Source of the DNA: Myxococcota bacterium | Lineage (GTDB): Bacteria; Myxococcota_A; UBA9160; UBA4427 | Direction: 5' to 3' | Length of the DNA stretch: 64,000 nt | Assembly (NCBI GenBank): GCA_965250285.1 | Contig: OZ252299.1 | Coordinates: forward strand, 3,168,001-3,232,000 | Shown here: positions 18,878-41,967 of the stretch, one piece after another | Numbering within the stretch: the first letter of the stretch is position 1 | Layout: each line of letters begins with the position of its first letter | Made by a program: the position numbers and the translations under genes | Notes under the pieces: generated by a model | Told to the model about the DNA's origin: nothing | What the model saw: the letters and a program-made list of their open reading frames with translations, nothing else | Database searches by the model: none

Positions 18878-19093
18878 TCGAGCACCAGACCAGATTCGAA
18901 CGGTCGTCCCCTGCCCACATCCGTCCGCCGCCGCACGCTGTGTCGGCGCGCTCATCCGATCTGCTCGCTCATCGCTCGCAGATCGCCCTCACGTTGGCAT
19001 GCCTTAAGCGCACGGGCCTCTAGCCCAAAACCGGCTTCGAGCTCTGGATACAAAAACGGCCCGCCCCACTACGTGGGACGAGCCGATTTTGTA
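18878..19093 (-). repeat. tRNA-Gly-linked 216-bp unit D (distal end degenerate)
   Basis: Same length as 41676-41891 and near-identical over ~18947-19093; tRNA 3' copy has 2 mismatches in 24 nt. Confidence 0.92.
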
Positions 19094-19216
19094 TGGAGCA
19101 CGAGACCAGATTCGAACTGGCATCCCCTTCGCACACCAGACATGCCGTTCCGGCATGTCCGGCGCGCTCATACGATCTGCTCCCTCATCGGTCGCAGATC
19201 GCCCTCAAGTTGGCAA
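19094..19216 (-). repeat. tRNA-Gly-linked unit C, truncated at anticodon-loop heptamer; att-like boundary
   Basis: 28 nt identical to tRNA 3' end; similarity stops after TTGGCAA (19210-19216). Confidence 0.92.
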
Positions 19217-19800
19217 AGCGAAAGAAGCGTGAGGGAGGACAGACACTTACGCTCTCGAGTCGGCAGATCGCGGCAGGGGATGACACTCAGCGGCAGCAGG
19301 CACGTCACCGAACGGCTAGACGTCACCTTACTGCGACCGCCCACACCCTCTGGGAGGGTCCGATCACACTCCCGATGACACTCCCATGGACCGGAGCGAC
19401 GACGCAGCCGGCCAGGCCGATTGGCCCTTTCGACCGTTCTGTTAGGATCGATCTGATCAGATCGAGCGGGATCGGAACGGCGGAGTCCACTCGACCCGAC
19501 TGCCTGGCAGTGTCGGCGAATGCCCTCTCTCGGGATGCTCGTGCGCTCGCGGAGGCCCATCGCGACGTGTCCCGCGCATGCCGCCGCCTTGCGATCGATC
19601 TCGTGCTTGGAGGTCAGGGGCGCTGGCCGGAGCGAATCCGGTATGGCCATCGACTGCGAAAGTTCCGAGAACTCCACGTGAAGTTCTCGGGCTGACGAGC
19701 ATCGGGACTCGGTCCGCCCCCGTAACAGCTGGTTCCTTGCCACGGAACCCTGTACCGACCCGCCGGAATCGAAGACGAAGACCTGGACAGGCACGACTCT

Positions 19801-22497
19801 ATGCATCAAGAACTCCTGAGAACGAAGCTCAATCCCCCTGGTACCGGCAGCCTCCATTTCCGGCGCGAGCGCCTGGTTCGCATCCTGGAAGCGGGTGCGA
19901 GCGATCCTTTCGTGCTCGTCTCGGCGCCAGCCGGCTTCGGAAAGACGACGCTGGTCAGCGACTGGCTCTCGTCATGTGACCGGCCGCATGCCTGGCTGTC
20001 GATCGACGAGCGCGACGGCGACCTCCGGCAATTCCTCAGATACATCGTGGCGGCAGTTCGGACGGCCATTCCCGATGCCCTGCCAACGATGGCGCTGACG
20101 GTGCGAGATTCGCCGCTCCCTCCCGTCGACACGCTGTGCACGACCCTCAGCAACGAGCTCGAAGACCTCGACACACCCATCACTCTGGTGATCGACGACT
20201 TTCATCGCCTCGGGTCGTCGCCCGTGCATGAACTGATGGCCGAGATCGTCACCCGGCCACCCCGGCCGCTCCGGTTGATCCTGATCTCGCGCTTCGACCC
20301 CCCGCTTCCGCTGGCGACATTGCGGGCCCATGGATGGAACACGGAGGTCAGAGCAGAGGATCTTCGCTTCACCCGCAGCGAGTCTGCGCATCTGTTGCGC
20401 GAGCTCGCAGGGGGGGACGTGGGCGATAATGCCCTGGGCAACCTGGAGCATCAGAACGACGGCTGGGCGGCCGGGCTCCAGATGATTGCGGTCTCCCTGC
20501 GCGGCCGCGACGACGCGGATGCCTACCTGCGGAACCTCCAGATCGGGCAGAAGTTCGCCCGAGAGTTTCTGGCGCGCGAAGTGCTCGACGTACAGTCCGA
20601 AGATCTGAGAAACTGGCTGCTCAGAGCCTCCATCGCCGAGCGCTTCTGCGCACCTCTCTGCGAGGCCGTTCAGGATCCGAACGAAAACCAAGCCTCGGGG
20701 ATGAGTGGCGAGGACTTCCTCGCAACGCTCGAGGAACGCGGCTTGTTCGTCATCCCCATGGATGCGACCGGGCGATGGTATCGATTTCATCACCTCTTCC
20801 GCGACCTCTTGCGCTCAGAGCTCGCTGCGCGCTGGAACCCCGAGTCGATCACCGAGCTGCACGAGCGTGCGAGTCGCTGGTTCGCCGAGCAGGGCCTCGT
20901 CGAAGAGGCGCTGGATCACGCGCTGATGCTGGGTGACCCGGCGCTGGCGGTAGAGCTGGTCGCCGAAAACCGACACGCTGCAATGAATCAAGAGGACTGG
21001 CACCGCCTGGGTGCATGGCTCGACCGGCTGCCGGCTGGCAGCGCCACGTCGGATCCGAGGATCATGCTCGCCCGTGGCTGGCATCTCTGCCATATCCCGC
21101 GATTCGAGGAAGCCCTCTCGCTGATCGAGGATGTACGCGCGCTGCCCGCCGAAACACGGGCGTGTCACCGCGGCGTCGAGGGCGAGATCGAAGCGATGGA
21201 TGGCCTGCTCGGCTACATCGGCCAGGGCGTCTTTGGTCGGGACCGCGAGAGAGTCATCCGTCACTGCGAGAAGGCGCTGCTGCAACTCCCAGCAGACTTC
21301 GGGTGCATCCGAGGCTATGCGACCTATTTCCTTTCCTTGTCGCACGCTCTAAGCGGCCAGGGCGAGACGGCTCGCACCATTCTCTGGCGGGCAATGGAAG
21401 AGGACAGTGCGACCGGTGCCGCCTGTCAAGCTCGCGTCCGGAGCGCCCTCGCCCACGTCCTCTTCCGGGCGGGCGACTTGAGGGGGACGCTGGTCGCAGC
21501 ACAACAGCAACTCGACGTGGGGAGTACGCATGACCTCCCTGAAACAGTGCAGATGGCGCGGTCCACGTTGGGATGGTCTCACTATCTGAGGGGTGAGATC
21601 GACCAAGCCGAGGAGCACTTCAAGGCAGGCTCAGCCGCCATCGGAGCCTCGACGCCGGCTCCTCATGCCGAGAGCCACATCGGTCTCGCGCTCAGCAAAC
21701 GGGCTCGGGGAGACGGCGTCGACGCACGCGAGTCCATCGCGTCGCTCACCGCCTCGGCCATCGCGCGCGGCGCGAGCGCCTGGATCGAACACGGGCGCCT
21801 GTATCAGGCCGAGATCGCTCTTCTCGACGGACGGACAGCGGAGGCTCAGGCGCTGCTGAAAGGGATCGAGAAGCCACGCGCCTTCGGCTTCTACTACGAC
21901 GCGGAGCTGACGATCGCGAAGGCCCGCCTGGCAGATGGCGGGGAGGCTGCTCTGAGCGAAGCGGTCTCGATGCTCGAAGCGATGCGACTGCGCCTGGAGG
22001 ACAGACACGACATCATGCGCCTCGGCCCCGTGCTGGCCGTCGAGGCGCTGGTTCATCGGGCCCTGGGTGAAGAGACCGCCGCGATCTCGTTCCTCGAGGC
22101 CTCACTCGCCGCAACCGAGATCGGAGAGGCCATCCAGCCCTACCTCGACCTGGGTGCGCCCATGGCTGCGCTGATGCGAGAGCTCCCTAGCCCGGCGTGC
22201 GACTCGGAACATGCTCGCCGAATCCTCGCGGCCTCGAGCGGCGAATCAGATGGGCAGCCTGCAACTACGGAAAGACGACATCGACCTGAAGAGACCGGAC
22301 TGATCGAGCCGCTCACCAACCGGGAGCTCGATGTTCTGGAGCTCCTGGCCGAGCGATATCGCGACAAGGAGATCGCCGAGAAGCTCGTCATCTCGCCCGG
22401 TACGGTCCGATCGCACCTGAAGCGCGTCTACGGCAAGCTCGGCGTGAGCGGGCGACGAGAGGCGGTGGCTCGGGCCCAAGGCCTCGGTCTCATCTAG
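19801..22497 (+). CDS. MalT-like (STAND ATPase-TPR-LuxR HTH) regulator, copy 1
   Basis: APAGFGKTT, LVIDDFH, GWAAGL, YRFHHLF, EPLTNRELDVL. Confidence 0.93.
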   Translation: MHQELLRTKLNPPGTGSLHFRRERLVRILEAGASDPFVLVSAPAGFGKTTLVSDWLSSCDRPHAWLSIDERDGDLRQFLRYIVAAVRTAIPDALPTMALTVRDSPLPPVDTLCTTLSNELEDLDTPITLVIDDFHRLGSSPVHELMAEIVTRPPRPLRLILISRFDPPLPLATLRAHGWNTEVRAEDLRFTRSESAHLLRELAGGDVGDNALGNLEHQNDGWAAGLQMIAVSLRGRDDADAYLRNLQIGQKFAREFLAREVLDVQSEDLRNWLLRASIAERFCAPLCEAVQDPNENQASGMSGEDFLATLEERGLFVIPMDATGRWYRFHHLFRDLLRSELAARWNPESITELHERASRWFAEQGLVEEALDHALMLGDPALAVELVAENRHAAMNQEDWHRLGAWLDRLPAGSATSDPRIMLARGWHLCHIPRFEEALSLIEDVRALPAETRACHRGVEGEIEAMDGLLGYIGQGVFGRDRERVIRHCEKALLQLPADFGCIRGYATYFLSLSHALSGQGETARTILWRAMEEDSATGAACQARVRSALAHVLFRAGDLRGTLVAAQQQLDVGSTHDLPETVQMARSTLGWSHYLRGEIDQAEEHFKAGSAAIGASTPAPHAESHIGLALSKRARGDGVDARESIASLTASAIARGASAWIEHGRLYQAEIALLDGRTAEAQALLKGIEKPRAFGFYYDAELTIAKARLADGGEAALSEAVSMLEAMRLRLEDRHDIMRLGPVLAVEALVHRALGEETAAISFLEASLAATEIGEAIQPYLDLGAPMAALMRELPSPACDSEHARRILAASSGESDGQPATTERRHRPEETGLIEPLTNRELDVLELLAERYRDKEIAEKLVISPGTVRSHLKRVYGKLGVSGRREAVARAQGLGLI

Positions 22498-22513
22498 CCG
22501 AGCAGAGCGCCAC

Positions 22514-23504
22514 TCAGCTCCCTCCGAGCAGCGGGTTCCCGATGAGCGAAGGGATGACCGGGATGATGTCAAACTTCATCATCGCCACCTTGCCGAACGA
22601 GTCCGGGCTGACCACGGAATACTCGAGCCCAACGTTGATCCGCACTGGGAACTCACCGAAGTTGACCGTCTTTGCGACGCTGATCCCGACCGGCACGGTC
22701 CACTGCTCTCCCTTCGGCTCATTCGCGTTGAACGTGATCGTCGGATCGAACCCGATCTGCCATCCATCCTTCAGGTTGATGTTGAAGTAGTAGAGCATGC
22801 TGAGCTGGCTCAGTTCGGACTTCTGAGTCGGATCGAAGTCGTTTCGATCCGCGACGCGAAAGTAGTACTGCGGCCAGATGAACGCCGTGAAGTGCTTCGG
22901 CGTTGTACCCGAACGTCACGGTTGGTCCGACGCCGACCTGCTGCGACCCGAGCGCGTCATTCGTCGAAGACGGGAAGGAGAAGGTCGGGCCCACTCCGAT
23001 GATCCACCGTCCCGCCGGCGGCGAGACGACGAGTGGCAGCACGATGTCGCCCAGGCCGGCTGCCGACGTGAACTCATCCTGCGCGCCTGTCGGCACGGGT
23101 GTGCTGAGCGTGATCGGAATGACCGGGCGCGTGATCAGCCGCCACTCCTTCTCGCCCTTGCCATGGAGCGGGATCGGCAGTACAGGCTCGAAGAGCAGGT
23201 TGCCGCCGTACTCTGGCCCATCCTCGGCCACGTTCCCGTTGTTGAACGTGAGCTCGAACTCCGTGAACAGCGCCCAGATGTCTGAAGTCGGGTCTGCGAG
23301 CTTGCGGGCAATGTCTCCGAGGCCGCCGTGCTCGGGGTGCTTGTACTCCTTCTTCTCCGGCTTCGCGCCTTCTTGCGCTGCGGCCGCCTCGTCTGTCGCT
23401 CCGTCGGTCTCGGCAGCTCGTGCGACGGTGGCCAGCGCGGGTAAGAACAATAGGACCATCATGAAGAATGTGATCTTGATCCGCGGCTGAGCAGCGAAGG
23501 TCAT
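22514..23504 (-). pseudogene. Outer-membrane beta-barrel/transporter-like protein with one extra base near 22898
   Basis: Signal peptide, EPVLPIPL, GLGDI, GVGPT; removing one base in GCC-G-AAG joins to KHFTAFIWPQYYF...WTVPVG; may be an assembly error. Confidence 0.7.
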
Positions 23505-23598
23505 GAGGTGATCTCCGTCAGTTGGCCCTGCCGCGTCGGGCAGTGCGGACCATTTTCGACTCACGATGTCGGAGGTCGAGGCGTCTTCAGGACGGCGA

Positions 23599-23997
23599 TC
23601 AGCCGCTGCCCTCGACGAACGCCTTGAGCCGCGTCAGAGCCGCGCCCCAATGGGTGTTGCAGTACCCCATGCTGGGGTCGCCATCCTTCCACGCGCCGTC
23701 GCTGAAGTTGACGAGCGTGCCGCCATCTACGTCGGACAGCTCGAACGTGATCTTCTTGCCGACGTCGCCAGGCCCCTCGACTCCTTCCTGGACGAGTCGC
23801 GTGTCCTCGACCATCTCGAGGGTTTTCCAGGCAAAGCTGAGATGGGGCTTGGCCTTCATCGACACGGTGGCGCCGACGGCAATTTCGCCCTCGACCCCGG
23901 CGTAGTGCCACTTCTCGAAGTCGGTCACGTTCGTGAGAGCTTCGTAGACCTTGTCTCTCGGCGCGGCGATCTTGATCGTGTGGTGAAGCGTCGTCAT
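23599..23997 (-). CDS. SRPBCC/START domain protein
   Basis: IKIAAPRDKVYEALT, CNTHWGAALTRLKAFVE. Confidence 0.88.
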   Translation of the reverse strand: MTTLHHTIKIAAPRDKVYEALTNVTDFEKWHYAGVEGEIAVGATVSMKAKPHLSFAWKTLEMVEDTRLVQEGVEGPGDVGKKITFELSDVDGGTLVNFSDGAWKDGDPSMGYCNTHWGAALTRLKAFVEGSG

Positions 23998-24008
23998 CGT
24001 GGATCTCC

Positions 24009-24251
24009 TCACTTCTTTCGCAGCGGGGGAATCGCCGGCATCATCGGAAAGTTGTCCAGGTCGTTCGGATCCAATTTGAACGTCGGGTCGTACTTGTCCC
24101 GGTCCGTCATGTAATCGGGCTCTGTGCTGCGGAAGGTGTAGTTGCAGGTCTTGCACATGTAGACGTCCCACACGCCCTTGACAGGCGACGAGAACACGAC
24201 ATCGAGCGTCTTGGAGCCGCAGCGGGGACAGATCGTGAAGGCATTGGCCAT
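24009..24251 (-). CDS. Hydroxyarylic acid decarboxylase subunit D (BsdD/VdcD family)
   Basis: ICPRC...SPVKGVWDVYMCKTCNYTFRSTEP, directly downstream of a C subunit. Confidence 0.9.
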   Translation of the reverse strand: MANAFTICPRCGSKTLDVVFSSPVKGVWDVYMCKTCNYTFRSTEPDYMTDRDKYDPTFKLDPNDLDNFPMMPAIPPLRKK

Positions 24252-24263
24252 GGGTCGAGTCTC

Positions 24264-25712
24264 CTACTTGCTTGCGTTCGCGAGGTTCTGAATCAAGGCT
24301 TGCACCTTCGGCAGCCACTCCTCGGCTTCGGGCGGATTGTTGATCTGCATCGCGTAATCGCCGTGATCGTCCGGCGGGGCAGGTGTCGCCGCGTCCAGGA
24401 TGATCTTGTCTGTGATGCCGACCGGATCGGACCCCGGGTCGAGTGCGAGGACCGAGTGGTTCGGCACGACCATGCAGTCGAACCTGGGGTTGAACTTCGT
24501 CGACAGTGCCCACATGACCTGCGGCAGGTTGAAGGGGTCGACATCGGCATCGACGATGATGACCACCTTCGCGTAGCCGGTGCCGTGCGGTGTCTGCAGC
24601 ACCGACATCCCGACTGTCTTGGCGAAGCCGCCAACTCTCATCTCGGTCGACACGATCACCACCAGGCCGTGGGTATAGAGCGCGTTCACGTCGACGACTT
24701 CGGGGAACGAGTCCTTGAGCTGCACGTAGAGCGCGGCACCCGTGTTGATGAACATGTAGTCGATCTCGGTCCAGGGCATTCCGATCGCGCAGTACTCGTA
24801 GATCGGATTGTTCCGGTGATAGACCTTCTTCACGTTGACCGAGCACATGAGTCGACAGCCCGAAAGATGACCCGTGAACTCGCCGTAGGGGCCGTCGGGC
24901 ATTCGGACGCGGGGCAGCACCTCGGCCTCGATCACGATCTCGCTGCCCCAAGGCACCTGCAGGCCGTTTTCCATCGTCACCACCGGGTACGGTGCGCCAT
25001 CGGCCATGGCGCTGCACATCGTGTACTCGTCCTGGTCGTACAGCAGCGGCATGCTGGCGATCAGCGGGACGATCGGCTCGTTCCCCATGGTGATATAGAT
25101 CGGTAGAGGCTCGTTTCGCTCTTCGGCGGCCTTGAAGTGCAGCGCGATGTCGTGATCCGGCACCATCTGCATGCTCAGATGGTTCGTCCCCTGGACCTGG
25201 ATCCTATACATCCCGACGTTCTGATCGTCGAAGCTGTCCATGCGGTCGGGGTGGCGAGAGACGACCGAGGACTTGTTGAGGAAGAAGCCGCCGTCCCCCG
25301 GGTTCAGACGGAAGAGCGGCAACAGCTCGAACAGATTGACGTCGTCGCCTTCGATCACGTTCTCTTGCCAGGGCGCGCTGTCCATCTCTTCGATGCTGCC
25401 TTTCTCGAAGTTCTGGTAGCGGCGGTTGAACTCGCGCGCGATGTCCTTGAGCGGAGTGTCCTTCGGCATGCCGAAGGCGAGCGCGATGTTCGGCCACGAC
25501 CCGTGCACGTTCGACACGAGCTTGGCGTCGCTCGTGTACCCCTTGATGTTGTCGAAGGCGATCGCGGGTGCCGTGTCACCGACCCCCTTGTTGTTTGCGC
25601 TCAGGATCGCGGAGATGTCGGGTTCGGGCAGAACCGGATCTGTCATGTGAATCATCTGCCCTTCCTTTTCCAGTAGCTCGAGGAATCCTCTGAAGTCCTT
25701 GTGCGCCATCAT
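24264..25712 (-). CDS. UbiD-family hydroxyarylic acid decarboxylase subunit C (BsdC/VdcC-like)
   Basis: NVHGSW, NVGMYR, DGPYGEFTGH, GMPWTEIDY, NALYTHG, DVDPFNLPQVMWA. Confidence 0.92.
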   Translation of the reverse strand: MMAHKDFRGFLELLEKEGQMIHMTDPVLPEPDISAILSANNKGVGDTAPAIAFDNIKGYTSDAKLVSNVHGSWPNIALAFGMPKDTPLKDIAREFNRRYQNFEKGSIEEMDSAPWQENVIEGDDVNLFELLPLFRLNPGDGGFFLNKSSVVSRHPDRMDSFDDQNVGMYRIQVQGTNHLSMQMVPDHDIALHFKAAEERNEPLPIYITMGNEPIVPLIASMPLLYDQDEYTMCSAMADGAPYPVVTMENGLQVPWGSEIVIEAEVLPRVRMPDGPYGEFTGHLSGCRLMCSVNVKKVYHRNNPIYEYCAIGMPWTEIDYMFINTGAALYVQLKDSFPEVVDVNALYTHGLVVIVSTEMRVGGFAKTVGMSVLQTPHGTGYAKVVIIVDADVDPFNLPQVMWALSTKFNPRFDCMVVPNHSVLALDPGSDPVGITDKIILDAATPAPPDDHGDYAMQINNPPEAEEWLPKVQALIQNLANASK

Positions 25713-25803
25713 CTCTACTCCCACGCAGTCACTTTGGATCGCTCTCGCTGCCGAAGCCGACGTTCGGCTTTTTCGAGTCGAGAGCCTTGTTCGTCGAGAA
25801 CGC

Positions 25804-25878
25804 CTATTGGTCGTCGAATCCCCACCGAGACCAGTTGTCGAGCACCTTTTGCTTGATCGGCTCGGGGATGTGGCTCGA
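25804..25878 (-). pseudogene. Remnant C-terminus of an additional Fdc1-like UbiD
   Basis: PEPIKQKVLDNWSRWGF versus PDPVRQKVLENWSRWGF at the end of 26789-28315 (13/17 identical). Confidence 0.8.
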
Positions 25879-25936
25879 GCGCGAGCCGCGCACGGTTCGG
25901 GATGGAGTTCGCTTCGAGGAGATCCTCTCGGCTCGA

Positions 25937-26347
25937 TCACCCCCCACCCTGCGCCTTCCATGCCGCCTCTTCGGGGCTGCCGGGGACGGGAAGGATCTTG
26001 CCCCCCTCGATGCAATGGCTTGCATCGACTTCGCCCATCACGATTTCGATCTCGCCGGAAGCACACCCGAGGGCGTCGGCGAACGCCTTGCGGATCCCGG
26101 TCTCGATCTTGGCCTTGTCCTCGTCGGTCCTTCCCGCGCGGATCGTGGCGTTCAGGTAGGCCAGCTTTCCTTCCGGCAAATCGGGGAACCCGACCTCGGG
26201 GTCGGCCTCCTCGGAGAAGAAGGCATTCACGAACTGGCGAGGGGCTCCCGTCACATCCACATGGGTCGTGAAGATCCCCTCGGCCATTCTCGAGCGCTGA
26301 TCCTCGGTGGTCGCGCCCGGTTTGACCGTCGTCAGATAGATCGGCAT
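25937..26347 (-). CDS. Tautomerase superfamily, cis-CaaD-like
   Basis: Pro1, His28, IRAGRT arginine pair, CIEGGKILPVPG. Confidence 0.85.
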   Translation of the reverse strand: MPIYLTTVKPGATTEDQRSRMAEGIFTTHVDVTGAPRQFVNAFFSEEADPEVGFPDLPEGKLAYLNATIRAGRTDEDKAKIETGIRKAFADALGCASGEIEIVMGEVDASHCIEGGKILPVPGSPEEAAWKAQGGG

Positions 26348-26392
26348 GAGTCTCCCCTCTCGGTCCGGATCGGGTCCGGACATGTCGGCGCT

Positions 26393-26704
26393 CTAGGTCG
26401 TCACTGTGACTTCGTTCGAGTCGACCCCGGTCTTCTCGACCCACAGGTCACTGAGCGACTTCAGGAGCTTCACACGGTCGTCGTAGGCGATGTCGTTCGG
26501 GACGTCGCAGCGAATCACGGTCGTCGTGCTGGGGTTGCCGCCGGTCCAGGCGAAGCCCTGGTCGACGGACCGCCAGAAGACGGGCGTCGAGGCTGCGTCC
26601 TGACCGAACTGGTCCACCGCGATCCTCTGGATGCCTTCCACCAGCTCGTGTTTTCGCGCGTCGGCCGCCTGGCCCCCTTGGACCAGCACTCGATACTTGG
26701 TCAT
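26393..26704 (-). CDS. Tautomerase-fold protein lacking Pro1
   Basis: Two beta-alpha-beta-like units (RKHELVEGI; RVKLLKSLSDLWVEKTGV..EVTV); begins MTKY; AAGGAG RBS. Confidence 0.6.
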   Translation of the reverse strand: MTKYRVLVQGGQAADARKHELVEGIQRIAVDQFGQDAASTPVFWRSVDQGFAWTGGNPSTTTVIRCDVPNDIAYDDRVKLLKSLSDLWVEKTGVDSNEVTVTT

Positions 26705-26733
26705 CTGTGTTCTCCTTGGAGTCGGTCCGCCTT

Positions 26734-26767
26734 CGTGCCGAGCCACTCGTTCGAGTGACTCGGCACG
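26734..26767 (-). other. Intra-operon stem-loop after ubiD
   Basis: CGTGCCGAGTCACTCG-AA-CGAGTGGCTCGGCACG, one G-U pair, no U tract. Confidence 0.6.
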
Positions 26768-26788
26768 CGCTACAGCGGTCGTCGAGCT

Positions 26789-28315
26789 CTACTTGGCGAA
26801 TCCCCATCGTGACCAGTTCTCGAGCACCTTCTGCCGGACGGGGTCCGGGTAGTTCGTCTCGAAGGTCAGGATGTTCTCCAGCTGCTGCCCGGTCTTGCCT
26901 TCGATGGGCAGGCAGCTGTACGCCGTCAGGCCACTGCCGTGGATGAAGTCGCTCTGGCTGTGATAGGCCTCGAGCCCCGTCCCGACGACGTTCTCGATCT
27001 CGGGGAAGTAGAACGTGCTCCGCGTCGGGTGATTCCGGGTCGCGAAGGCCCAGCACACCTCGAGGGCGCTATCGGGATCGACGTCCTCGTTCACCACGAT
27101 GATCTTCGTGGTGATGTTGCCCACGTGCTGCGACCAGAGCGTCGTGCCGATCTTCCGGACGAACTCCTCCATGCCCAACCCGGTCTTCTGATGCCAGTCG
27201 TTGTCGACGCGAATGACCAGCCACGCCAGGGCAGACTCCATCGTCAGCATGCTGTCGATCACGGGGAGCCCCTCCTTCTGCAAGGCGACGGTGACGTCGC
27301 CCGACATGAAGAAGCCCATGCCGACGGTGCACGAGTCGATCGGCTTTCCCGGCACCGAGACGGGGAAGAGCGGGTTGTTGCGGTACGTGACGTGGGTGAC
27401 GGTCACCCGTGCGCGGTTCGCCGTATCGAAGGGCAGGTAGCCCTGATACTCGCCGAACGGCCCTTCCACCTCCATCGCATCCTTCGAGACGAAGCCTTCG
27501 AGGACGATCTCGGAATCGGCCGGCACCAACAGGTCGTTCGTGTCGCACTTGACCATGCGGATGCCTTCGCCGAGCAGCCGGCTGGCATAGTCGTACTCGT
27601 TCGTGAAGTCGGGCGCCTTCGCCGACGACTGCGTGAGAACGACCGGCGGCACACCGAACGCCATCGCCCACGGCGTGTCCTGCCCTTCCTCGGTCCACTG
27701 ATCGTGCACCATGCCGTTGTGCTGCGAAGAGAGCCAGAGACCCGTCATCGTGGTCTCGTTCACGATCATCGCGCGATTGATCGACCAGCTCGTCCAGCTC
27801 TCGTCTGGAGTCCGAACGATGTTGACGCCCGCGGTTCCGATGTAGCGAGCAGCGTCGCCGTCATGACAGAGCGGCGCGGGGATCTTGTAGATGTCGATCT
27901 CGTCGCCGGTCCACGTGTTCTCCTTGCACGGCGCATCCGACGCATCGACGATGACCGGCTCGTGCACCTCCGTGCCCTCTCGAGCCTCGAGGTACGCCTT
28001 CTGGATGTCCATCAGGCCGGTTTCGGGCGGAAGGCCGAGCATGGCCGCGAGGCGGCACCACTCCCGCCCTGGCGTGCTCGACTTCGTGTACCCGATGTCG
28101 CAGGCGCGGAAGCCTTCGCCCTCTGGCGTGCCCTTGATGTTGTTGAAGATCGGCGTCGGAGCCAGCGTCTCGTAGGAGTGACGGCAGACTGCACCCATCT
28201 CGAGATGCGTGTCGATCTCGTCATCGATCTCGACCGCCTCCCCCATCTTCTTGAGGTTCTCGATGTATTCGCGATAGGTGCGCGGGATCTTTGCTCGGTC
28301 GATCGAAACTGACAT
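26789..28315 (-). CDS. UbiD-family decarboxylase, Fdc1 (ferulic/cinnamic acid)-like
   Basis: WTSWSINR, EGPFGEYQGY, WAFATRNHP, C-terminal KVLENWSRWG. Confidence 0.9.
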   Translation of the reverse strand: MSVSIDRAKIPRTYREYIENLKKMGEAVEIDDEIDTHLEMGAVCRHSYETLAPTPIFNNIKGTPEGEGFRACDIGYTKSSTPGREWCRLAAMLGLPPETGLMDIQKAYLEAREGTEVHEPVIVDASDAPCKENTWTGDEIDIYKIPAPLCHDGDAARYIGTAGVNIVRTPDESWTSWSINRAMIVNETTMTGLWLSSQHNGMVHDQWTEEGQDTPWAMAFGVPPVVLTQSSAKAPDFTNEYDYASRLLGEGIRMVKCDTNDLLVPADSEIVLEGFVSKDAMEVEGPFGEYQGYLPFDTANRARVTVTHVTYRNNPLFPVSVPGKPIDSCTVGMGFFMSGDVTVALQKEGLPVIDSMLTMESALAWLVIRVDNDWHQKTGLGMEEFVRKIGTTLWSQHVGNITTKIIVVNEDVDPDSALEVCWAFATRNHPTRSTFYFPEIENVVGTGLEAYHSQSDFIHGSGLTAYSCLPIEGKTGQQLENILTFETNYPDPVRQKVLENWSRWGFAK

Positions 28316-33975: not shown

Positions 33976-36684
33976 TTGAATCCGGATGTTCTGAAATCCA
34001 AGCTCAACCGTCCGTATGTCGGTCGCGAGCACACGGTCCGGGAGCGGCTCTGGCATCAGCTCGACGGCGCCGCGACCGCCCCGTTCGTGCTCGTGTCGGC
34101 CCCCGCCGGGTTCGGCAAGACGACCCTGGTCAGCAGCTGGCTCGACACGCGCGGAGAACGCTTCGCCTGGCTCTCGGTCGATGCGGGTGATGACGACCTC
34201 CGGACTTTCCTCCGCTATCTGCTTGCCGCGGTGCGCACCGTCGCGCCCGATACAGCCCGGCGAACCGGCGTGTTGTTGCAGGAGCCTGCCCTCCCCCCGG
34301 TGGCCGAGCTGAGCGCAGCGCTCAGCAACGACCTCGACGAGCTGGAGATGCCATTCCACCTGGCGCTCGACGACTACCATCACATCAAGGCGAGCGAGGT
34401 GCACGAGCTCGTCTCGTCGCTCGTCATGCGCCCCCCTCGAACACTGCGGCTGATACTCCTCGCGCGCCATGACCCTCCCCTGCCGCTGGAGACGCTCCGA
34501 GCTCAGAACAGAATCGCGGAAGTCCGTGCCCAACAGCTTCGGTTCACGCGAGAAGAAGCTGCGGACATGGTCGCCACACTGTCGGGGACAGTCCCCGGAG
34601 ATCGAGCCCTCGACAACCTCGAGGTGCAGAACGACGGCTGGGCCGTTGGGCTGCAACTGATCTCGCTGGCGGCTCGGGAGCGAAAGGATGTCGATGCGTA
34701 CCTGCGTGATCTGCAGGTGGGGCCACGTACGACCCGGGACTATCTGGCTCGTGAGGTGCTCGACGCTCAGCCGCCGCAGTTGCAGGCGTGGCTCCTCAGG
34801 ATCTCGATTCTGGACCGCTTCTGCGCCCCGTTGTGCGAGACCCTCAAGCCCACAGCCGACGGAGAGCCAGACGATGGATCGGACTTCCTCGCGCTCTCGG
34901 GAGCGGACTTCGTCGCTGAGTTGGAGCATCGCGGCCTCTTCGTGATCGCACTCGACGACCAGAACGAGTGGTTTCGGTTTCACCACGTGTTCCGCGATCT
35001 ACTCAGCAGCGAGCTGAACGGACGAGAATCTCCGGGCGGTGTTCTAGACCTCCACAGCAGCGCCAGCGCGTGGTTCGCCGAGCACGACTTCGTCGAAGAG
35101 GCATTGGATCACGCGTGTACGGCAGGCGACATGGATTCGGCGACTTCGATCGTCGCCGAACGTCGTCACGTAGCGACGGGCCTCGAAGACTGGCACCGCC
35201 TGAACGCATGGCTCGAGCGACTCCCGCCCGCGGACCTCGAAGCCGATCCGAGACTCGTTCTGGCCCGAGCCTGGTTCGCGTCGTTTTGCGCTCAGTTCGA
35301 TCTCATGATCGAGTACATGGTCAAGGCAAGCGGCTTCGAGCTCGACAGCCGCCCGGACGGTCCGAGCCTCGAAGGAGAGATTCGGGCGCTGGAGGCCTCG
35401 ATGTACTTCATCGGCCTCGATGCGCCAGGCGTCATTCGCAGCGCAGAGCGGGCGCTCGAGCTACTGCCCCTCGACTTCGAATGCGTGCGGGGCTACGCCA
35501 TATTCCTGCTCTCCTGGGGCTACAGTGCGAGCGGACGCGGTCGCGAGGCGCGTGAAGCCCTCTGGCGTGAGATGGATGCGGGACGGAATGCGGGGCCCGC
35601 GTTCCGCGGGCGCGTTCGCGGCGGCCTGGCCCACGTGTTGCTGCGAGAGGGAGATCTCGCCGGCAGCCTGACCGCCGCCCGCCAGCTGTTCGAGATTGGC
35701 GAGGAGCATGACCTCCTCGAGACCGTCATCATGGCGCGGTCTTTCATGGCGTGGGCACACTACCTCCGCGACGAGCTCGAAGAAGCGGAGGCGCACTTCA
35801 AAGCGATCCTCCTGACCAGACGCTCGGCCATTCATATCGGCCACGTGGAGGGACACATCGGGCTGGCGCTATGCATGCAAGCTCGAGGGCACTACGAGAA
35901 GGCTCGACAGTGGGCCCAGGAGATGACCGCCCTGGGCATCGCGCGGGATCAGCCCATGTGGATCGAAGAAGGACGCATCTACGAAGCAGAGATCGCGCTG
36001 CGTCAGGGCGGGGTCGACGAAGCGAAGACCCTGGTCGAGCACCACCAGGCACTTCAGCCGCGTTGGGGATTCATGTACGAGCCCCAGCTCACTCGCCCGC
36101 GACTGTGGCTCGCCGAGGGCACACCTGCGTCTCTCGAACGGGCGAAGGCGGAGCTCGCGCCGATCCGCGAACGCTTCGAGGCATCGAACGATCGGATGCG
36201 CCTGGCCGAAGTGCTGGCCGTGGAGGCCCTGGTCGAGGATGCGCTCGGCCATGCGGAGATCGCGCGCGATCGCCTGTCGATGGCGCTTCCGCTCACGCGG
36301 CAGGGGGGAGCCATACGGCCCTACCTCGACCGCGGGCCTTCGATGGCATCGTTGCTGCGAAAGGTCGAGCTGCCACCCGAAGAGTCGGAGCAGGTCGACC
36401 GGATTCTCCAGGCTCTGGGAAGCACGACGGCGACCGAACGATCGACTTTGCAAACGGAGCGCCCGAGCGGCGAAGAGCTCGTGGAGCCTTTGACCAACCG
36501 CGAGCTCGATGTTCTCGAGCTACTCGACGAGCGCTTCCGAGACAAGGAGATCGCGGAGAGGCTGTCGATCGCACCGGGGACCGTGCGATCCCACCTCAAG
36601 TCGGCCTACCGCAAGCTGGACGTGAACGGTCGGCGGAGCGCCGTCGAGCGAGCGCGCGAGCTGGGGATCTTGAAGAAGAACTGA
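33976..36684 (+). CDS. MalT-like (STAND ATPase-TPR-LuxR HTH) regulator, copy 2
   Basis: APAGFGKTT, ALDDYH, FRFHHVF, EPLTNRELDVL; collinear with 19801-22497. Confidence 0.93.
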   Translation: MNPDVLKSKLNRPYVGREHTVRERLWHQLDGAATAPFVLVSAPAGFGKTTLVSSWLDTRGERFAWLSVDAGDDDLRTFLRYLLAAVRTVAPDTARRTGVLLQEPALPPVAELSAALSNDLDELEMPFHLALDDYHHIKASEVHELVSSLVMRPPRTLRLILLARHDPPLPLETLRAQNRIAEVRAQQLRFTREEAADMVATLSGTVPGDRALDNLEVQNDGWAVGLQLISLAARERKDVDAYLRDLQVGPRTTRDYLAREVLDAQPPQLQAWLLRISILDRFCAPLCETLKPTADGEPDDGSDFLALSGADFVAELEHRGLFVIALDDQNEWFRFHHVFRDLLSSELNGRESPGGVLDLHSSASAWFAEHDFVEEALDHACTAGDMDSATSIVAERRHVATGLEDWHRLNAWLERLPPADLEADPRLVLARAWFASFCAQFDLMIEYMVKASGFELDSRPDGPSLEGEIRALEASMYFIGLDAPGVIRSAERALELLPLDFECVRGYAIFLLSWGYSASGRGREAREALWREMDAGRNAGPAFRGRVRGGLAHVLLREGDLAGSLTAARQLFEIGEEHDLLETVIMARSFMAWAHYLRDELEEAEAHFKAILLTRRSAIHIGHVEGHIGLALCMQARGHYEKARQWAQEMTALGIARDQPMWIEEGRIYEAEIALRQGGVDEAKTLVEHHQALQPRWGFMYEPQLTRPRLWLAEGTPASLERAKAELAPIRERFEASNDRMRLAEVLAVEALVEDALGHAEIARDRLSMALPLTRQGGAIRPYLDRGPSMASLLRKVELPPEESEQVDRILQALGSTTATERSTLQTERPSGEELVEPLTNRELDVLELLDERFRDKEIAERLSIAPGTVRSHLKSAYRKLDVNGRRSAVERARELGILKKN

Positions 36685-36797
36685 GCGCACCGGCGGGGGC
36701 GGCAAGCGCCGCAGCTGACGGTCATCGCGATCGCCTGCGAGGCGCAGCCCGACCTCGACGTCCCGTGGCTCGGCGGGGAGGCCACATCGGCAAGCGT

Positions 36798-37676
36798 GTG
36801 CTGAGACGGGCTGAAAGGCACTTTGTCCTTCATCGTCGCGATGGAGTTCGTGATGGCGACCGTGAGCAGCGCGCCCACGTCCGGGCCCGACGGATCGTCC
36901 CGACGAGAGCGGGGGCGCAAGGCCTCGCCTACCTCTGGGCACTGCTCGGGTGCCTCTCGGGTGCATGCGCGCTCGAGCCTCCGGGTGAACCCACGCTCGG
37001 CCTGTTCGGCAACGCCGACCCCCGCGTCTTCTACGGGCGCGAGATCGCCGAGCCTCTGATCGCGCTCACGATCGACGACGCGCCCGATCGCGAGTCGACG
37101 CCGCGCATCCTCGACGCGCTCCGCGCGCACGATGCCCGCGCGACCTTCTTCGTCATCGGTGATCAGGTACCCGGCAACGAGATGCTCCTTCGACGGATCG
37201 TCCGGGACGGGCACGAGATCGGCAATCACATGGCGAGCGACGTCAAGAGCGTCGATCTCGACCCGAGCGAGTTCGAACGGCGGCTGGTGCACACGCAAAG
37301 AGAGCTCTCACGCTTCGCGCCGGTGCGCTGGTTTCGCCCCGGCTCCGGCTACTACAGCACCGAGATGCTCGACATCCTCGACCGCCACGATCTGCAGTGC
37401 GCCCTCGGCAAGGTGTACCCGCTCGACGCACAGCTACGTTGGGGCTGGCTCGTCAGATCCTGGATCGGCTGGCGCAAGAGGCCAGGCGCCGTCGTCATTC
37501 TGCATGATCGAGGTTCCCGGGGCCTACGCACGGCGGCCACCTTGGAGCGTGTGCTGCCCCGTCTTCGGGAGGCCGGCTATCGCGCCGTCACACTCAGCGA
37601 ACTGGCCGACTGGTCCGGAGCTGAGCCCCCCGCTTGGGACGCCGGCGTCGCCCCCCACCCAACGCACGGCGGCTAG
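36798..37676 (+). CDS. Polysaccharide deacetylase (NodB) family protein; start uncertain
   Basis: LTIDDAP, ATFFVIG, HEIGNH, WFRPG, VILHD; in-frame GTG at 36798, or ATG at 36853 with a frameshift. Confidence 0.8.
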   Translation: MLRRAERHFVLHRRDGVRDGDREQRAHVRARRIVPTRAGAQGLAYLWALLGCLSGACALEPPGEPTLGLFGNADPRVFYGREIAEPLIALTIDDAPDRESTPRILDALRAHDARATFFVIGDQVPGNEMLLRRIVRDGHEIGNHMASDVKSVDLDPSEFERRLVHTQRELSRFAPVRWFRPGSGYYSTEMLDILDRHDLQCALGKVYPLDAQLRWGWLVRSWIGWRKRPGAVVILHDRGSRGLRTAATLERVLPRLREAGYRAVTLSELADWSGAEPPAWDAGVAPHPTHGG

Positions 37677-37682
37677 ACGGGC

Positions 37683-39053
37683 TCAGTTCATCGTCGACGA
37701 TGACTCTTCCTCGCGGAGCTCCCGCCTGCGTCGATCCCAGGCTTCGCTCGACTCTCTCAGCATCTCCCGACGAAGCCCCTCGATCTCGCGAAATCTCTCG
37801 GCGGCATCGATGGTGCGATTTCGGGCATTCTCGATGTACTCGTAGTAGATGCCTCGATCTTCGAGAAAGCGTTTGCTCCGGACGGCGTCCGTCCAGCTCT
37901 TGGCTTCCTCGCGACCCTCGAGGATCTCGTCGTATCTCGTCACGAAGTAGCGGAGATTGGCGTCGATCCGGAGGTAACGACCATCGGCGAGCAGCTTCTG
38001 AGCATGCTTCCGCGTGCCATTGCTGAACCAGCCACCGAGCACGAACATGCGCTGCTTCGTGTCGTAGAGCGAGTTGATCTGAAGAACCGGGAGCGTGACG
38101 AGCAGCGCGCCAGGCACGGCAGGCAGCCACTGATGCTCGGTCAGGCCCTTCCAGCGTAGGTCGTCTCGCTGGATCTTCGGAAAGTCCTCGATCGGGTACT
38201 CGTTCGACAGCATCGCGAGATCGATGACGGTGTTGGCGGGCACGGCCAGATTGAAGAACTGACGGAGCTTCGTCGCGCGCACCGACTTCGGCTTCCACAC
38301 CCCCGCTGCGGCGAGCGCGTTGTGTAGCGTGTGGACGCAGTTGTCCGAGAGCCCGTTCCAGTCGTAGTCGGCCTCGCCGTTGTAATATTCTTCGTTGAGG
38401 CCGTTCAGGTAGTCCATCGCCGCAACGAGCATCTCCTCGCGGAGCGGCAGTCGCGCGCAGTAGGCTGTCCGCCCGAATCGAACCGCGAAATCGGTTCCAA
38501 TGCCGTCGGTGCGCACGAACTCTTCGAGCGAGGGCGCTTCGGAGGCATCACGGATCGGGCGCAGCTCGATGCCGTCATAGAGCCCGAGATCGACCGCGCG
38601 CTGCACCGCCTGATCGAAGCGCTCCTGGTCGAGCATCTCGAACGTCTCGACACCGCCATTGAAGAAGAGGAAGCGAGTCGGGGTCGCCACCCAGTTGGCG
38701 TTCTTGAACCAGCGATTCACGCTCACGCCCGCGCCGTGCTCCGGATCTCGTGTGTCGCCGGTTGCGTACCTGCAGCGACGAAGCCTCGGGTAGTCGGCTG
38801 TCTCATCGACGCAGGCGCCCTTGATGTACATGGCCGCGTGCCCGGGCGATCCGCCCATGACTCCGTCCCTCGGCCGGTATTGCGTGACGGCACACAGCTC
38901 GACGTAGTGGTCGACGATCTCCTCGTAGATCGCGTCGGGCTCACTGAGCGGCGCGATCGCCTCCCGCGGACCGCGGAAGAGTTCCCCCACCGCGCAGCCG
39001 AGCGACTGAGAGACGAGACAGACAGCGACGAGCAGAAGGATGCGAGCTTGCAT
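37683..39053 (-). CDS. Putative lipoprotein with permuted papain-like (DUF4105/Lnb-like) His...Cys motifs
   Basis: SLGC lipobox; SPGHAAMY; YDWNGLSDNCVH. Confidence 0.55.
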   Translation of the reverse strand: MQARILLLVAVCLVSQSLGCAVGELFRGPREAIAPLSEPDAIYEEIVDHYVELCAVTQYRPRDGVMGGSPGHAAMYIKGACVDETADYPRLRRCRYATGDTRDPEHGAGVSVNRWFKNANWVATPTRFLFFNGGVETFEMLDQERFDQAVQRAVDLGLYDGIELRPIRDASEAPSLEEFVRTDGIGTDFAVRFGRTAYCARLPLREEMLVAAMDYLNGLNEEYYNGEADYDWNGLSDNCVHTLHNALAAAGVWKPKSVRATKLRQFFNLAVPANTVIDLAMLSNEYPIEDFPKIQRDDLRWKGLTEHQWLPAVPGALLVTLPVLQINSLYDTKQRMFVLGGWFSNGTRKHAQKLLADGRYLRIDANLRYFVTRYDEILEGREEAKSWTDAVRSKRFLEDRGIYYEYIENARNRTIDAAERFREIEGLRREMLRESSEAWDRRRRELREEESSSTMN

Positions 39054-39295
39054 CGGCAGAATGGTCTCCGGTTTCGAAATGTTCTCGAGGCTGACCGTAG
39101 AGGTCGACCCATACCGCGCCTTCCCGAGTGCGCGTCGTAGTCGGGGTTGCCGCATGAGAGGACGGTTGCGACACGGCCTCATGCTCGACTGAAGATCCTG
39201 ATGACTCGGCGCTCGTCGCTGCCTCACGTCACGTGCGGGCGGCGTGAGATCGAGCGTCGACCATCACGCAAGCAGCGGATGATCGGACGCCCAGC

Positions 39296-39903
39296 TCAGT
39301 TTCTCCGATCGAGGTAACCAGCGGGGAGCTCACTCGGAGCACAGTTGATGACTTCGTCGTTGTCGCGTCCTCGATCCTCCATGAAGGTGATCTCGGCGTA
39401 GTCCCAGTTCACGAACATGGGGAGCACGGGACCCTTGTCGCGGTGTTCCCGCATCGCGGGAAGGTGCTCGTTCTGGTGGACGGTCGTGACCTCCGGATTC
39501 TTGGTGATCCATTGCGCCATCGTGAAGAACCCGTGAATGAACCGCTTTGCGAAGTTGAAGTTGAGCACGCAGATGGATCCGGTCGGTTCGCACCACGCAA
39601 CCTTGTAGTTGCCGTCCCCCAGATTGGTCGTCAGCAGTCGCTGGTGCGTCGTCCATCGCTCCGCAACCAGCCCGCTCGAGATGCGGTAGTCGCCGAGCTT
39701 CTCGTTCCGGAAGTAGAACTCGTAGTGCCATCCGTTCGCGCATGTGTAGATGATGTGTTCCCCACGATCTCGCTCAGATCATTCGCTTCGGGCGGCTCGG
39801 TCTTGACCGGCTGCTGGGGATCCGTGTTGTCCTGCCAGTCGCAAACGGGGTTGTCGGTGGGCTGCCAGCTCGAGTAGTCCGTGACGATCACCTTGTCGGC
39901 CAT
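39296..39903 (-). pseudogene. Cofactor-free phenolic acid decarboxylase (PadA/PadC family), one base missing near 39760
   Basis: Shifted frame reads HIIYTCANGWHYEFY...DYRISSGLVAERW...YKVAWCEPTG...HQNEH...AEITFMED.G.DNDEVI; locus length 608 = 3n+2. Confidence 0.85.
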
Positions 39904-40061
39904 GCTCTTTCTCTCCTTGGGCGAGGCTTGCCTCGTCTTCCATCTGAGCGCCGTTGTCCTCGCTACGACTGTGGCAGCGCACCGAGTAGGGGCGGCGACG
40001 GCAGTGGGCTCCAGATGCCCACCCGCGGCTCAGCTCCAATCTATGGGGCCCGCGAGTAATC

Positions 40062-40118
40062 AAGTTAGAGAGGACCGATCGCAGGAGACTCTCTCACTTT
40101 GAGGGGTTTTTCGGAGGG
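40062..40118 (-). promoter_or_regulatory. Putative activator box plus -10 for pad
   Basis: CCCTCCGAAAAACCCCT upstream of TAACTT; spacing within 1 nt of the other two. Confidence 0.5.
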
Positions 40119-40432
40119 TCGGCGCCCTCGTGGATGCTCACGCAGCTTCGAAGCCGAGCGTTGGCGAGGCGCTACTCCGCGCCTGACGCACCCTTCGCGA
40201 ATCGATCCAGCTCGAGCGCGAGAATCGAACAAGTGGAAGAGACCACCTGGTGAGGTGGCGCCACACATCCGAGTGGGGCAGCCAGCGGCTACGCGAGGCC
40301 GACGCCGAATCAGCTGCTGGAGGCCTCAACGCCTCGGGTCCCCGCGCGGAGTGATCGGATCCGGAACGAGACACGGGCCTGACGCTGCTCCTCCGCACCG
40401 ACCGACCGATCAAGCTGACGGGCCCGATGACG

Positions 40433-40455
40433 TGAAGCACGAGACCAGACTCGAA
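40433..40455 (-). repeat. Degenerate tRNA-Gly 3'-end copy
   Basis: TGAAGCACGAGACCAGACTCGAA, 21/23 to the tRNA end. Confidence 0.8.
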
Positions 40456-40605
40456 GGGGCGTTATTGCCGCAGGCGTCGTCGAAACACGCAGTCGCGCCA
40501 TCCACGAGACGGCACAGGCGGAGAGGCCCCGTAGTGTGGCAGTTGCCGAAGCTTGATCATCTTCCTCGTGACAGCCGCCCGAACCTTCGCAGGCTGCGGA
40601 ACTCT

Positions 40606-41247
40606 TCACTTGGAATCAGAACGGTCGGAGTAGCCATCCCTGATGCGGTGCAGCAGCGGAGCGAGCAATGGGAAGGCCATCCACACGAACGGGGCGCGGC
40701 GTGGTGCGGCCCATCCAGCCAGGCACGCGACAACGGTGATCACGAGCATCAGAATCGTCGACGACCGCGGCGAGGTGACCGCGCGGTTGGTCAGGGCCTG
40801 TTGGACGAAAAAAGAGCGTTCGACGCTCCACATGCGGTCCAGGGCGATTCCGCCCATGATCAGCGTCAGGGAGAACACGACCACGGACCACGGATTGTTG
40901 CGGTGCTCCGCGATCAATGCGGTGGTGAAAGGAATGACGGACACAGCGGCCAGGAAGGCGAAGTTCCAACCCATGAATGCCCTCGACCGGTGACCACCCC
41001 CTACGAGCAGTGCGTGCTGGACGATCCACAGTCGCGCCAGGATCGCGAAGCTCAAGACCCAGGCCAGGAAGTGAGGAAGCTGCCTCAACAGCGCGCGTTC
41101 GGTGAACTCGCCGGTCGCTTCAGGCTCGAGGTTCAGGGGATCGAGGGCGGGCAACTTCAGATCGAGCACGAGAAGGGTCAGCGCAATGGCGAAGACCCCA
41201 TCGCTCAACGCGGCAAGGCGAGACGAGTCGAACCGAGCCTGCCTCAT
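40606..41247 (-). CDS. TMEM175 (DUF1211) family K+ channel
   Basis: RLAALSDGVFAIALTLLVLDL, SFAIL..LW..QH, IPFTT. Confidence 0.9.
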   Translation of the reverse strand: MRQARFDSSRLAALSDGVFAIALTLLVLDLKLPALDPLNLEPEATGEFTERALLRQLPHFLAWVLSFAILARLWIVQHALLVGGGHRSRAFMGWNFAFLAAVSVIPFTTALIAEHRNNPWSVVVFSLTLIMGGIALDRMWSVERSFFVQQALTNRAVTSPRSSTILMLVITVVACLAGWAAPRRAPFVWMAFPLLAPLLHRIRDGYSDRSDSK

Positions 41248-41416
41248 CCCCTGATCGCCATATGGAACCCCTCCATCCATCGAAGGCTAGCTTGCCGTTG
41301 ACGTCTTAATCAGGCGGCCCCCTGACTGCGCGGGGGTGGTCGTGGATCGCGTGGTGCGGCTATGTGAAGAGAGCCGCTCCGGAAAGCTAAAGGCCTGGCG
41401 GGGTGACTTCTTGACA

Positions 41417-41675
41417 TGGAGCACGAGATCAGATTCGAACTGGCGTTCCCTTCGCGACGGCGCGCGGGGCTGGCGCGCGAACTGGCATCCCCTTCGCACA
41501 CTGGGCGCGCCCTTTCGGGCACACCCAGCGCGCTCATACGATCTGCTCGCTCATCGCTCGCAGATCGCCCTCAAGTTGGCATGCCTTGAGCGCACGAGCC
41601 TCTAGCCCGAAACCGGCTTCGAGCTCTGGATACAAAAACGGCCCGCCCCACTACGTGGGACGAGCCGATTTTGTA
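41417..41675 (-). repeat. tRNA-Gly-linked unit B (259 bp, internal 42-bp duplication/insert)
   Basis: Matches unit A; CGAACTGGCnTnCCTTCGC-type segment at both 41436 and 41478. Confidence 0.92.
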
Positions 41676-41891
41676 TGGAGCACGAGACCAGATTCGAACT
41701 GGCATTCCCTTCGCACATCAGTCCGCCGCTTCGCGGCGAACCGATGCGCTCATACGATCTGCTCGCTCATCGCTCGCAGATCGCCCTCAAGTTGGCATGC
41801 CTTAAGCGCACGGGCCTCTAGCCCGAAACCGGCTTCGAGCTCTGGATACAAAAACGGCCCGCCCCACTACGTGGGACGAGCCGATTTTGTA
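41676..41891 (-). repeat. tRNA-Gly-linked 216-bp unit A
   Basis: Abuts tRNA CCA; ends in an exact 28-nt copy of the tRNA 3' end. Confidence 0.95.
41847..41891 (-). terminator. Terminator-like hairpin after tRNA, repeated at 41631-41675 and 19049-19093
   Basis: CGGCTCGTCCCAC-GTA-GTGGGGCGGGCCG-TTTTT. Confidence 0.7.
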
Positions 41892-41967
41892 TGGAGCACG
41901 AGACCAGATTCGAACTGGCGACCCTCACGTTGGCAACGTGATGCTCTACCAACTGAGCTACTCGTGC
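41892..41967 (-). tRNA. tRNA-Gly (GCC)
   Basis: 76-nt cloverleaf: GCACGAG/CTCGTGC acceptor, TCACG-TTGCCAA-CGTGA anticodon arm, GTTCGAATC, TCCA end. Confidence 0.97.

Follow-up and report, generated by a model that had tools for sequence, protein, structure and literature searches.

The stretch of Myxococcota DNA analysed here, a window of 64,000 nucleotides (nt) from the source genome G000 (G000:C1:3168001-3232000), contains a single tRNA gene, tRNA-Gly(GCC) on the minus strand at 41892-41967, which is also the only intron-less GCC tRNA of the genome. Associated with this gene are four repeat units, U1 to U4, in which a copy of the 3′ half of the tRNA is split by a structured hairpin insert, hereafter the core. 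An original prediction, made from the sequence alone, had proposed these units, and all four are confirmed at the positions it gave; it had pictured them as one array, and they do share a locus, but as two pairs separated by a 22.2-kb island. The features are as follows.

41892-41967, minus strand: tRNA-Gly(GCC) gene, intact; the anchor for the repeats and the island
41676-41891, minus strand: unit U1, complete, 216 nt
41847-41891, minus strand: U1 hairpin A, with a 20-pair stem, a 3-nt GTA loop and a T-run; terminator-like, and the tip of a long fold-back
41798-41846, minus strand: U1 mirror arm, which matches the reverse complement of the tRNA-Gly 3′ half imperfectly and ends at the anticodon-loop junction
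41784-41797, minus strand: U1 direct copy of the anticodon loop, 3′ stem and variable loop as far as nt 46
41755-41783, minus strand: U1 core hairpin 1, a conserved stem that covaries, with a GA/GA mismatch inside it and a 5-nt loop
41704-41755, minus strand: U1 core module 2, with a GTAT tag, unpaired GA, a 17-pair hypervariable stem-loop, a GAA tail and a linker; the layout resembles that of a GTAG-1 REP
41676-41703, minus strand: U1 direct copy of the T-arm, acceptor 3′ strand and CCA, 28/28 identical to the tRNA
41417-41675, minus strand: unit U2, 259 nt; its insert (41445-41567) has an extra 43 nt that repeat the linker and the start of the T-stem
19217-41416, no strand: the 22.2-kb island
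40433-40461, minus strand: decayed tRNA 3′ end closing a TMEM175 segment of about 1 kb, without a core
19094-19216, minus strand: U3p, a 3′ half with a core, fused to the island end at the 7-nt anticodon loop; insert at 19122-19201
18878-19093, minus strand: unit U4, 216 nt, the most decayed, with a tail of 24/28 and module 2 partly unpaired

Several features of the units are apparent. First, a full unit consists of hairpin A, the inverted copy and the direct copy with insert, so that together with the tRNA half in front of it the layout is direct, tip, inverted, loop, direct with insert; the "second hairpin" that had been recognised earlier is there, but it is part of the inverted copy of the tRNA 3′ half, the mirror arm. 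Second, the insert is 80 nt long in U1, U3p and U4, where it stands in place of tRNA nt 47-48 as predicted, whereas that of U2 is 123 nt. Third, the tail from T-arm to CCA matches the tRNA at 28/28 positions in U1 and U3p, 27/28 in U2 and 24/28 in U4, and the sequence of hairpin A is identical in U1, U2 and U4. Fourth, the relic at 40433, which had been listed along with the units, is a decayed T-arm and acceptor end but has no recognisable core (model E 0.008). Finally, U1 folds far better than its shuffled versions, with z -8.3 for RNA and z -6.1 for DNA and 0/200 shuffles as good in either case, and takes as RNA a multibranch form with a CCA end. The view that these are structured elements, and more than plain att copies, holds.

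The U1-specific hairpin is present in short-read contigs at a depth of 40.6, and a single short-read contig of 22,466 nt runs from U3p through the island to U2 at a depth of 42.9, which is the level of the flanks; in a second run a contig extends across U2 and has U1-type letters there at two places. This check covers U1, U2 and U3p, and the runs come from one study and may include the source sample. Unit-specific hairpins are found at single-copy depth, and the contigs support U1, U2 and U3p as separate copies. The near-identical fronts of the units (2-5 differences in 143 nt) and the breaking of short-read contigs within repeats are what duplication by the assembler, or plain att debris, would have in its favour; it had been named beforehand as the outcome that would undo the prediction, it is already refuted for these three units, and with the same layout repeated in many independent assemblies we give it almost no credence overall.

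The mirror arm and the core

The mirror arm resembles the reverse complement of the tRNA half more closely than shuffled sequences do, with z-scores of 4.3 (U1), 2.9 (U2) and 3.5 (U4) under strict pairing and 5.9, 5.2 and 5.5 when wobble pairs are allowed; for U1, 0/300 shuffles were as good. When the best tRNA was sought among 44, the cognate ranked second for U1, first for U2 and second for U4, its rival being the Gly(CCC) paralogue. Among 17 Gly units (one of them mis-parsed, with rank 31, and scored as a miss) the arm is significant in 11, at no more than 3/300 shuffles, and the cognate is among the top three in 7 only. Ten Arg units are excluded from this support, since their test is partly circular (the selection stem lies inside the scored stretch). 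One unit of genome G123 has a near-perfect mirror arm, 30/37 identical (z 11). RNA folding joins the mirror arm, hairpin A and the tRNA half into a single hairpin of 55 pairs (z -8.7), with the anticodon loop at one end and the tip of hairpin A at the other. Changes in the mirror arm are directional, with 36 A>G and 29 C>T against 12 G>A and 6 T>C.

A near-perfect head-to-head junction of two Gly halves, again at the anticodon loop and with a different insert, was found in G004 (1/193 genomes searched), suggesting recurrent fold-back at this loop. This junction (L151 1123-1256, G004:C285) is young; an IS200-like Y1 fragment is about 250 nt away, and an antitoxin/RES-like gene pair lies next to the junction.

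The core consists of two parts that differ in their conservation. In hairpin 1, 5 of the 10 pairs have changed on both sides among 25 related sequences, giving 28 double-change cells against 7.5 in shuffled alignments (0/500 as good). Module 2 is hypervariable, with 20-27 identical letters of 37-38 between the units of the window, which differ at 2-5 of the other 143 nt. Among 52 copies, selected with a pattern of which the tag is itself a part, 26 have the tag GTAT and 16 GTAG, and a stem of at least five pairs follows tag and GA directly in 43, of which 28 have a GAA or GAC tail.

The loops are short. In 14/14 units the loop of hairpin A has 3 nt and a C-G closing pair, compared with 9/63 other hairpins behind Gly ends and 5/26 T-run hairpins of G000. 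Module 2 has triloops in 33 of 46 copies (16 of them GNA) and GNRA tetraloops in 2, counts that come from related copies and from a loop-calling script that favours the shortest loop. DNA versions of GNA-type mini-hairpins are much more stable than RNA versions (PMC13037366), and the three-base loops point to folded single-stranded DNA.

Occurrence of the core, empty sites and the island

The expectation that other tRNAs would have units made with their own 3′ halves is borne out. In G000 the core splits an Arg(CCG) unit that carries that tRNA's own half and adjoins its gene (C1:1420202-1420383), and it is also present in two Arg(TCG)-type fragments of an island array at the tmRNA gene (C1:2525079 and 2527455); target-matched flanks thus occur on three tRNAs. 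Copies per locus in G000 are four at Gly and one at Arg(CCG). A covariance search of this genome and its relatives, which the original prediction had called for, gave 7 matches in G000 and, with model R1 at E<=1e-4, matches in 33/68 family genomes with at most 15 copies each; the T-stem of R1 is two columns off, so that the weakest matches (6/33 genomes) are probably plain tRNA halves, and the strict set is the 27 genomes left when six with weak or plain-tRNA matches are dropped. R1 gave no match in the 140 genomes sampled from the rest of the phylum. With an exact pattern, 22 stretches were found in 10 assemblies from a species collection (8 of them titled Myxococcota, Myxococcales or Deltaproteobacteria), 40 in metagenomes and none in viral contigs. 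Against Rfam only tRNA was matched at gathering level, and nothing credible at E<=10. Some Arg(TCG) and Arg(CCG) units of relatives (L023, L024, L025 and L094) have a second hairpin insert in the T-loop, the position used by the E. coli tyr repeats.

The core is a polymorphic insertion. Homologous island ends in the tmRNA array are empty at two G000 sites and filled, at the same position, at one G000 and one G021 site; likewise, among copies of a REP-like repeat that has no relation to tRNA, two in G153 carry the core, and another in G153 and one in G128 lack it. A census of 92 distinct junctions, at loci largely chosen through the insert and hence biased, found tRNA fronts followed by the insert in 0 cases and by a plain half in 27, unit fronts followed by the insert in 18 and by a plain half in 0, and island ends followed by the insert in 29 (including one Arg site and perhaps a few decayed units) and by a plain half in 18. 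No tRNA front was present among the 40 metagenome matches.

The core was therefore not seen in a tRNA-Gly gene (0/27 fronts), and for the only full-length gene that carries it, an Arg(CCG) of G034, there is an intact second copy elsewhere. From these two facts it follows that only spare copies tolerate the core and that it is not a tRNA intron, a reading that we considered and rejected. In the G034 gene (L085 1470-1616, G034:C201) the core follows nt 46 and lies behind a displaced tRNA-Val fragment; the intact copy is on G034:C787.

Two of the settings of the core have features of their own. The tandem island array at the tmRNA gene (G000:C1:2525000-2605800) has four displaced tmRNA ends, several island ends with a near-complete tRNA-Arg(TCG)-like fragment, empty or core-filled and far from the real gene, and one inverted fragment of this type at 2527867. 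The REP-like repeat (L104 3566-3740, L105 4700-4880 and L173) is a separate repeat, located between genes at their 3′ ends, in which the core sits apart from tRNAs, and its empty form follows tRNA-Arg(CCG) in L092 and L103.

The island at 19217-41416 encodes two LuxR/MalT regulators, two UbiD proteins, a flavoprotein, a luciferase-like monooxygenase, a NUDIX protein, a GST, a polysaccharide deacetylase and TMEM175, with no match to a tyrosine (PF00589) or large serine (PF07508) recombinase; the contig of a comparable array in G023 likewise has neither. U3p starts at the first base of the 7-nt anticodon loop, a known crossover site for tRNA-targeting islands (PMC4383910). The two regulator genes (19801-22497 and 33976-36684) are paralogues 14.2 kb apart, with about 71% DNA identity in places, and flank the cluster of the two UbiD genes and the flavoprotein. 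Arrays of integrase-less segments of 1-9 kb, with recurring types of island arm, are present at tRNA-Gly in L021, L022 (G023:C6:22222-45868), L098 and L063, and carry sulfatases, SDRs, Fic proteins, DUF4143 ATPases and toxin-antitoxin pairs.

Origin and role of the units

We lean slightly towards regarding the units as selfish fold-back DNA with a mobile hairpin core, a variant of the tRNA-linked repeats (TLRs) compared below. The core is likely a small non-autonomous mobile element that acts as folded single-stranded DNA. It would insert at the base of a stem, behind a run of G, killing the tRNA that it enters and surviving only in spare copies. Fold-back copying at the tips of hairpin A and the anticodon loop could then generate a direct-inverted-direct triplication with an intact gene in front, and the core would in this way persist at an essential gene, while units may multiply via their 28-bp shared end. 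Integrase-less islands would enter the real tRNA at the anticodon loop, with integrase supplied in trans, and push the units outwards; a long fold-back could join two loop words, often with deletion of the stretch between them, and would leave an island ending on a core-bearing half, for example at U3p. No host function would be necessary.

A number of observations weigh against this interpretation. Filled sites could also arise by gene conversion or deletion, and the census is biased by its choice of loci; no intermediate or excision circle of the core was seen. The mirror arm is weak in genus g14 (cognate rank of three or better in only 7/17 units), and its pairing in full needs RNA energies, as DNA energies pair the inner part only; it drifts with 65 A>G or C>T changes against 18 reverse transitions and keeps G·U pairs. 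The preference of the script for short loops bears on the loop census, and copy number is low, at 7 model matches in G000. No match to Y1 (PF01797), reverse transcriptase or large serine recombinase was found in G000, no core lies near the 30 Y1 loci fetched (Y1 is present in 19/68 family genomes), and surveys of neighbouring genes found no recurrent nuclease or recombinase beside the units.

Clustering of 3151 neighbouring open reading frames gave housekeeping and cargo genes and one IS481/IS3-like rve family in four genomes, and 80 of the 160 longest frames from the metagenome loci included one IS91-type transposase and no recurrent enzyme. A small GIY-YIG nuclease was considered as the mobiliser and rejected: G000 has only frames of 326 and 694 amino acids, and the sole short match among five relatives is on an AT-rich, unlinked contig. 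A Y1-type transposase family of about 229 amino acids is greatly expanded in G153 (31 matches; about 30 loci, e.g. L164 and L168) and G007 (11 matches), and G000:C1:2096437-2097933 is a divergent tyrosine-recombinase-like frame with a partial match to the catalytic domain, similar partial matches being present in 5/5 relatives checked.

The units might instead be kept as RNA, read-through of hairpin A giving either a tRNA mimic, made of the acceptor and T-arm helix with a CCA end, or an anti-tRNA arm that would refold the precursor and so tune tRNA-Gly output. The multibranch fold of U1, the covariation of hairpin 1, the wobble-type drift of the mirror arm and its better pairing as RNA are in keeping with this, and three repeats of the TLR class in E. 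coli rRNA operons (rrA/B/F) are transcribed and processed to small RNA (PMC8144298). Yet a terminator-like hairpin precedes the units, most of the loops have 3 nt and few are GNRA, presence is patchy (33/68 genomes), and cores are also found at island ends and in tRNA-free repeats. The A>G and C>T excess is also the deamination pattern of an exposed strand, and template switching from arm to arm can yield paired changes without selection, which we count against retention as RNA. While the G·U-type changes leave an RNA role open, we regard it as unlikely.

Renewable landing pads were, besides a source of tRNA-like RNAs, the role proposed in the original prediction, the units being spare attB sites, or else locks, for tRNA-targeting islands. 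The exact start of U3p at the anticodon loop would suit such a role, as would the frequency of island ends on a core-bearing half (29/92 junctions), the conservation of the loop word in all units and the 7-9-kb integrase-less segments that the G023 units separate. The reciprocal junction that it predicts, a unit front followed by an insert-free 3′ half, was nevertheless seen in 0/18 cases, including both arrays seen end to end (G000 and G023), and landing pads are for this reason not supported; at several island ends, moreover, the letters typical of units start past the variable loop instead of at the loop, and islands stack at tRNA-Gly also in genomes without units (L026 and L027). We therefore find this role quite improbable; it would be more economical for islands to enter the true gene and for a fold-back to join two loop words later, deleting what lies between. 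Still harder to credit is a folded unit that serves as an attC-like single-strand recombination site for an integron integrase or XerCD, with a cassette array at the tRNA. The unit does form a long imperfect hairpin with bulged parts, and G000 has an integron integrase above cut-off (G000:C1:5462777-5463781). Integron integrase matches occur in 34/68 family genomes and show a crude association with units (19/8/15/26; Fisher p 0.013 with the strict 27, p 0.14 with all 33, uncorrected for kinship). The core consensus of attC is RYYYAAC / GTTRRRY, however, and neither the loop word nor the T-loop of the units fits it; the integrase, at C1:5.46 Mb, is 2.25 Mb from the window at 3.17-3.23 Mb; 8/27 unit-bearing genomes have no integrase match; and integrase and units both pile up in one genus. 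The 1.6 kb upstream of the G000 integrase has no obvious cassette array.

Comparison with known repeats and islands

Selfish fold-back DNA of the kind that we favour shares parts of its anatomy with several known systems. The direct-inverted-direct geometry, with fold-back junctions at short hairpins, is analogous to that of ODIRA inverted triplications, which arise by template switching (PMC4689423); here, however, the scale is about 50 bp, the setting is bacterial and a hairpin insert is always present. The likeness is offered as an analogy only. The 22.2-kb segment resembles tRNA-targeting islands (PMC4383910) in that a displaced 3′ fragment, with its start at the anticodon loop, closes it, but it has no integrase of its own, the displaced fragment carries a core, and the units are without island arm sequence. 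Core-bearing displaced fragments also matter for the annotation of islands, because they break the tRNA-fragment match that is used to map island ends.

A GTAG-1 REP has a tag, an unpaired dinucleotide, a stem-loop and a 3-nt tail (PMC3733652, PMC3116915, PMC8266576), and module 2 resembles it with its tag, unpaired GA, stem-loop and tail (28/52 copies, chosen with a pattern that included the tag). Like REPs and REPINs, the cores are probably non-autonomous, strand-specific hairpins that insert into other palindromes. They differ in having an extra hairpin upstream, in being tied to tRNA halves and in a tag that is mostly GTAT; there are 7 copies, not hundreds, and only 5 of the 557 tag sites in G000 carry the module, three of them in the window. 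In addition, no RAYT (PF01797) was found in G000, and no core near the 30 Y1 loci fetched from the family. The core works like a REP or REPIN yet fails on copy number and RAYT linkage, and is not classed there.

The closest relatives in layout are the TLRs of the E. coli tyrT/tyrV and lysT loci (Egan and Landy 1978; Rudd 1999; both as cited in PMC8144298). By the definition given in PMC8144298, a TLR lies downstream of a tRNA or rRNA gene, its last 18-19 bp are the tRNA 3′ end, and one to five copies are present per locus; function and origin are there described as unexplained since 1978. U1 and U2 lie directly behind tRNA-Gly and the Arg(CCG) unit behind its own gene, the 3′ end of each unit is the tRNA end (28/28 in U1 and U3p, 27/28 in U2, 24/28 in U4), and copies are few per locus (four at Gly, one at Arg(CCG)). 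The units belong to the TLR class by this definition. A match to a characterised repeat family with known function had been named as a possible refutation, and what was found is a class whose function is unexplained, with no RtT match in Rfam at E<=10.

The likeness to the E. coli repeats extends to the mirror-plus-direct layout. An inverted copy of the tRNA 3′ end is present in the tyr TLRs too (4/4, z 4.6-5.4; in the lys repeats it is significant in 1/5 only), and the direct copy of the tyr TLRs is split by a hairpin insert with a GAGCG-N(1-3)-AGCGAG motif that the units share. In the E. coli chromosome 7 of the 18 matches to this motif are in the two 3.4-kb TLR loci, and it is not enriched genome-wide in G000 (108 against 148 in the control). 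The insert, however, follows nt 46 here and is in the T-loop in E. coli, and the direct copy extends back to the anticodon loop here, unlike that of the E. coli TLRs. The kinship with the tyrT repeats that had been suggested is thus one of layout and not of sequence, our own model giving E 3.6 on the tyr TLRs. In the literature searched, which included few subscription papers, we found no account of a variable-loop insert or a mirror arm, though Rudd (1999) and Egan and Landy (1978) may describe the latter.

As a second independent origin of TLRs, the Myxococcota units make the origin of this class testable, since this family, unlike E. coli, offers dozens of diverged copies on three tRNAs, both empty and filled sites, and young as well as old mirror arms. 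A more tentative proposal, possible but on balance doubtful, is that the TLRs found from E. coli to Myxococcota form a single class of mobile elements of single-stranded DNA, with both arms built out of target sequence, the insertion of a mini-hairpin being coupled to fold-back copying of the tRNA 3′ half, with the gene regenerated and a host enzyme other than RAYT acting in trans. If true, such elements would spread in a target-templated way, and a class of repeats without explanation since 1978 would be accounted for.

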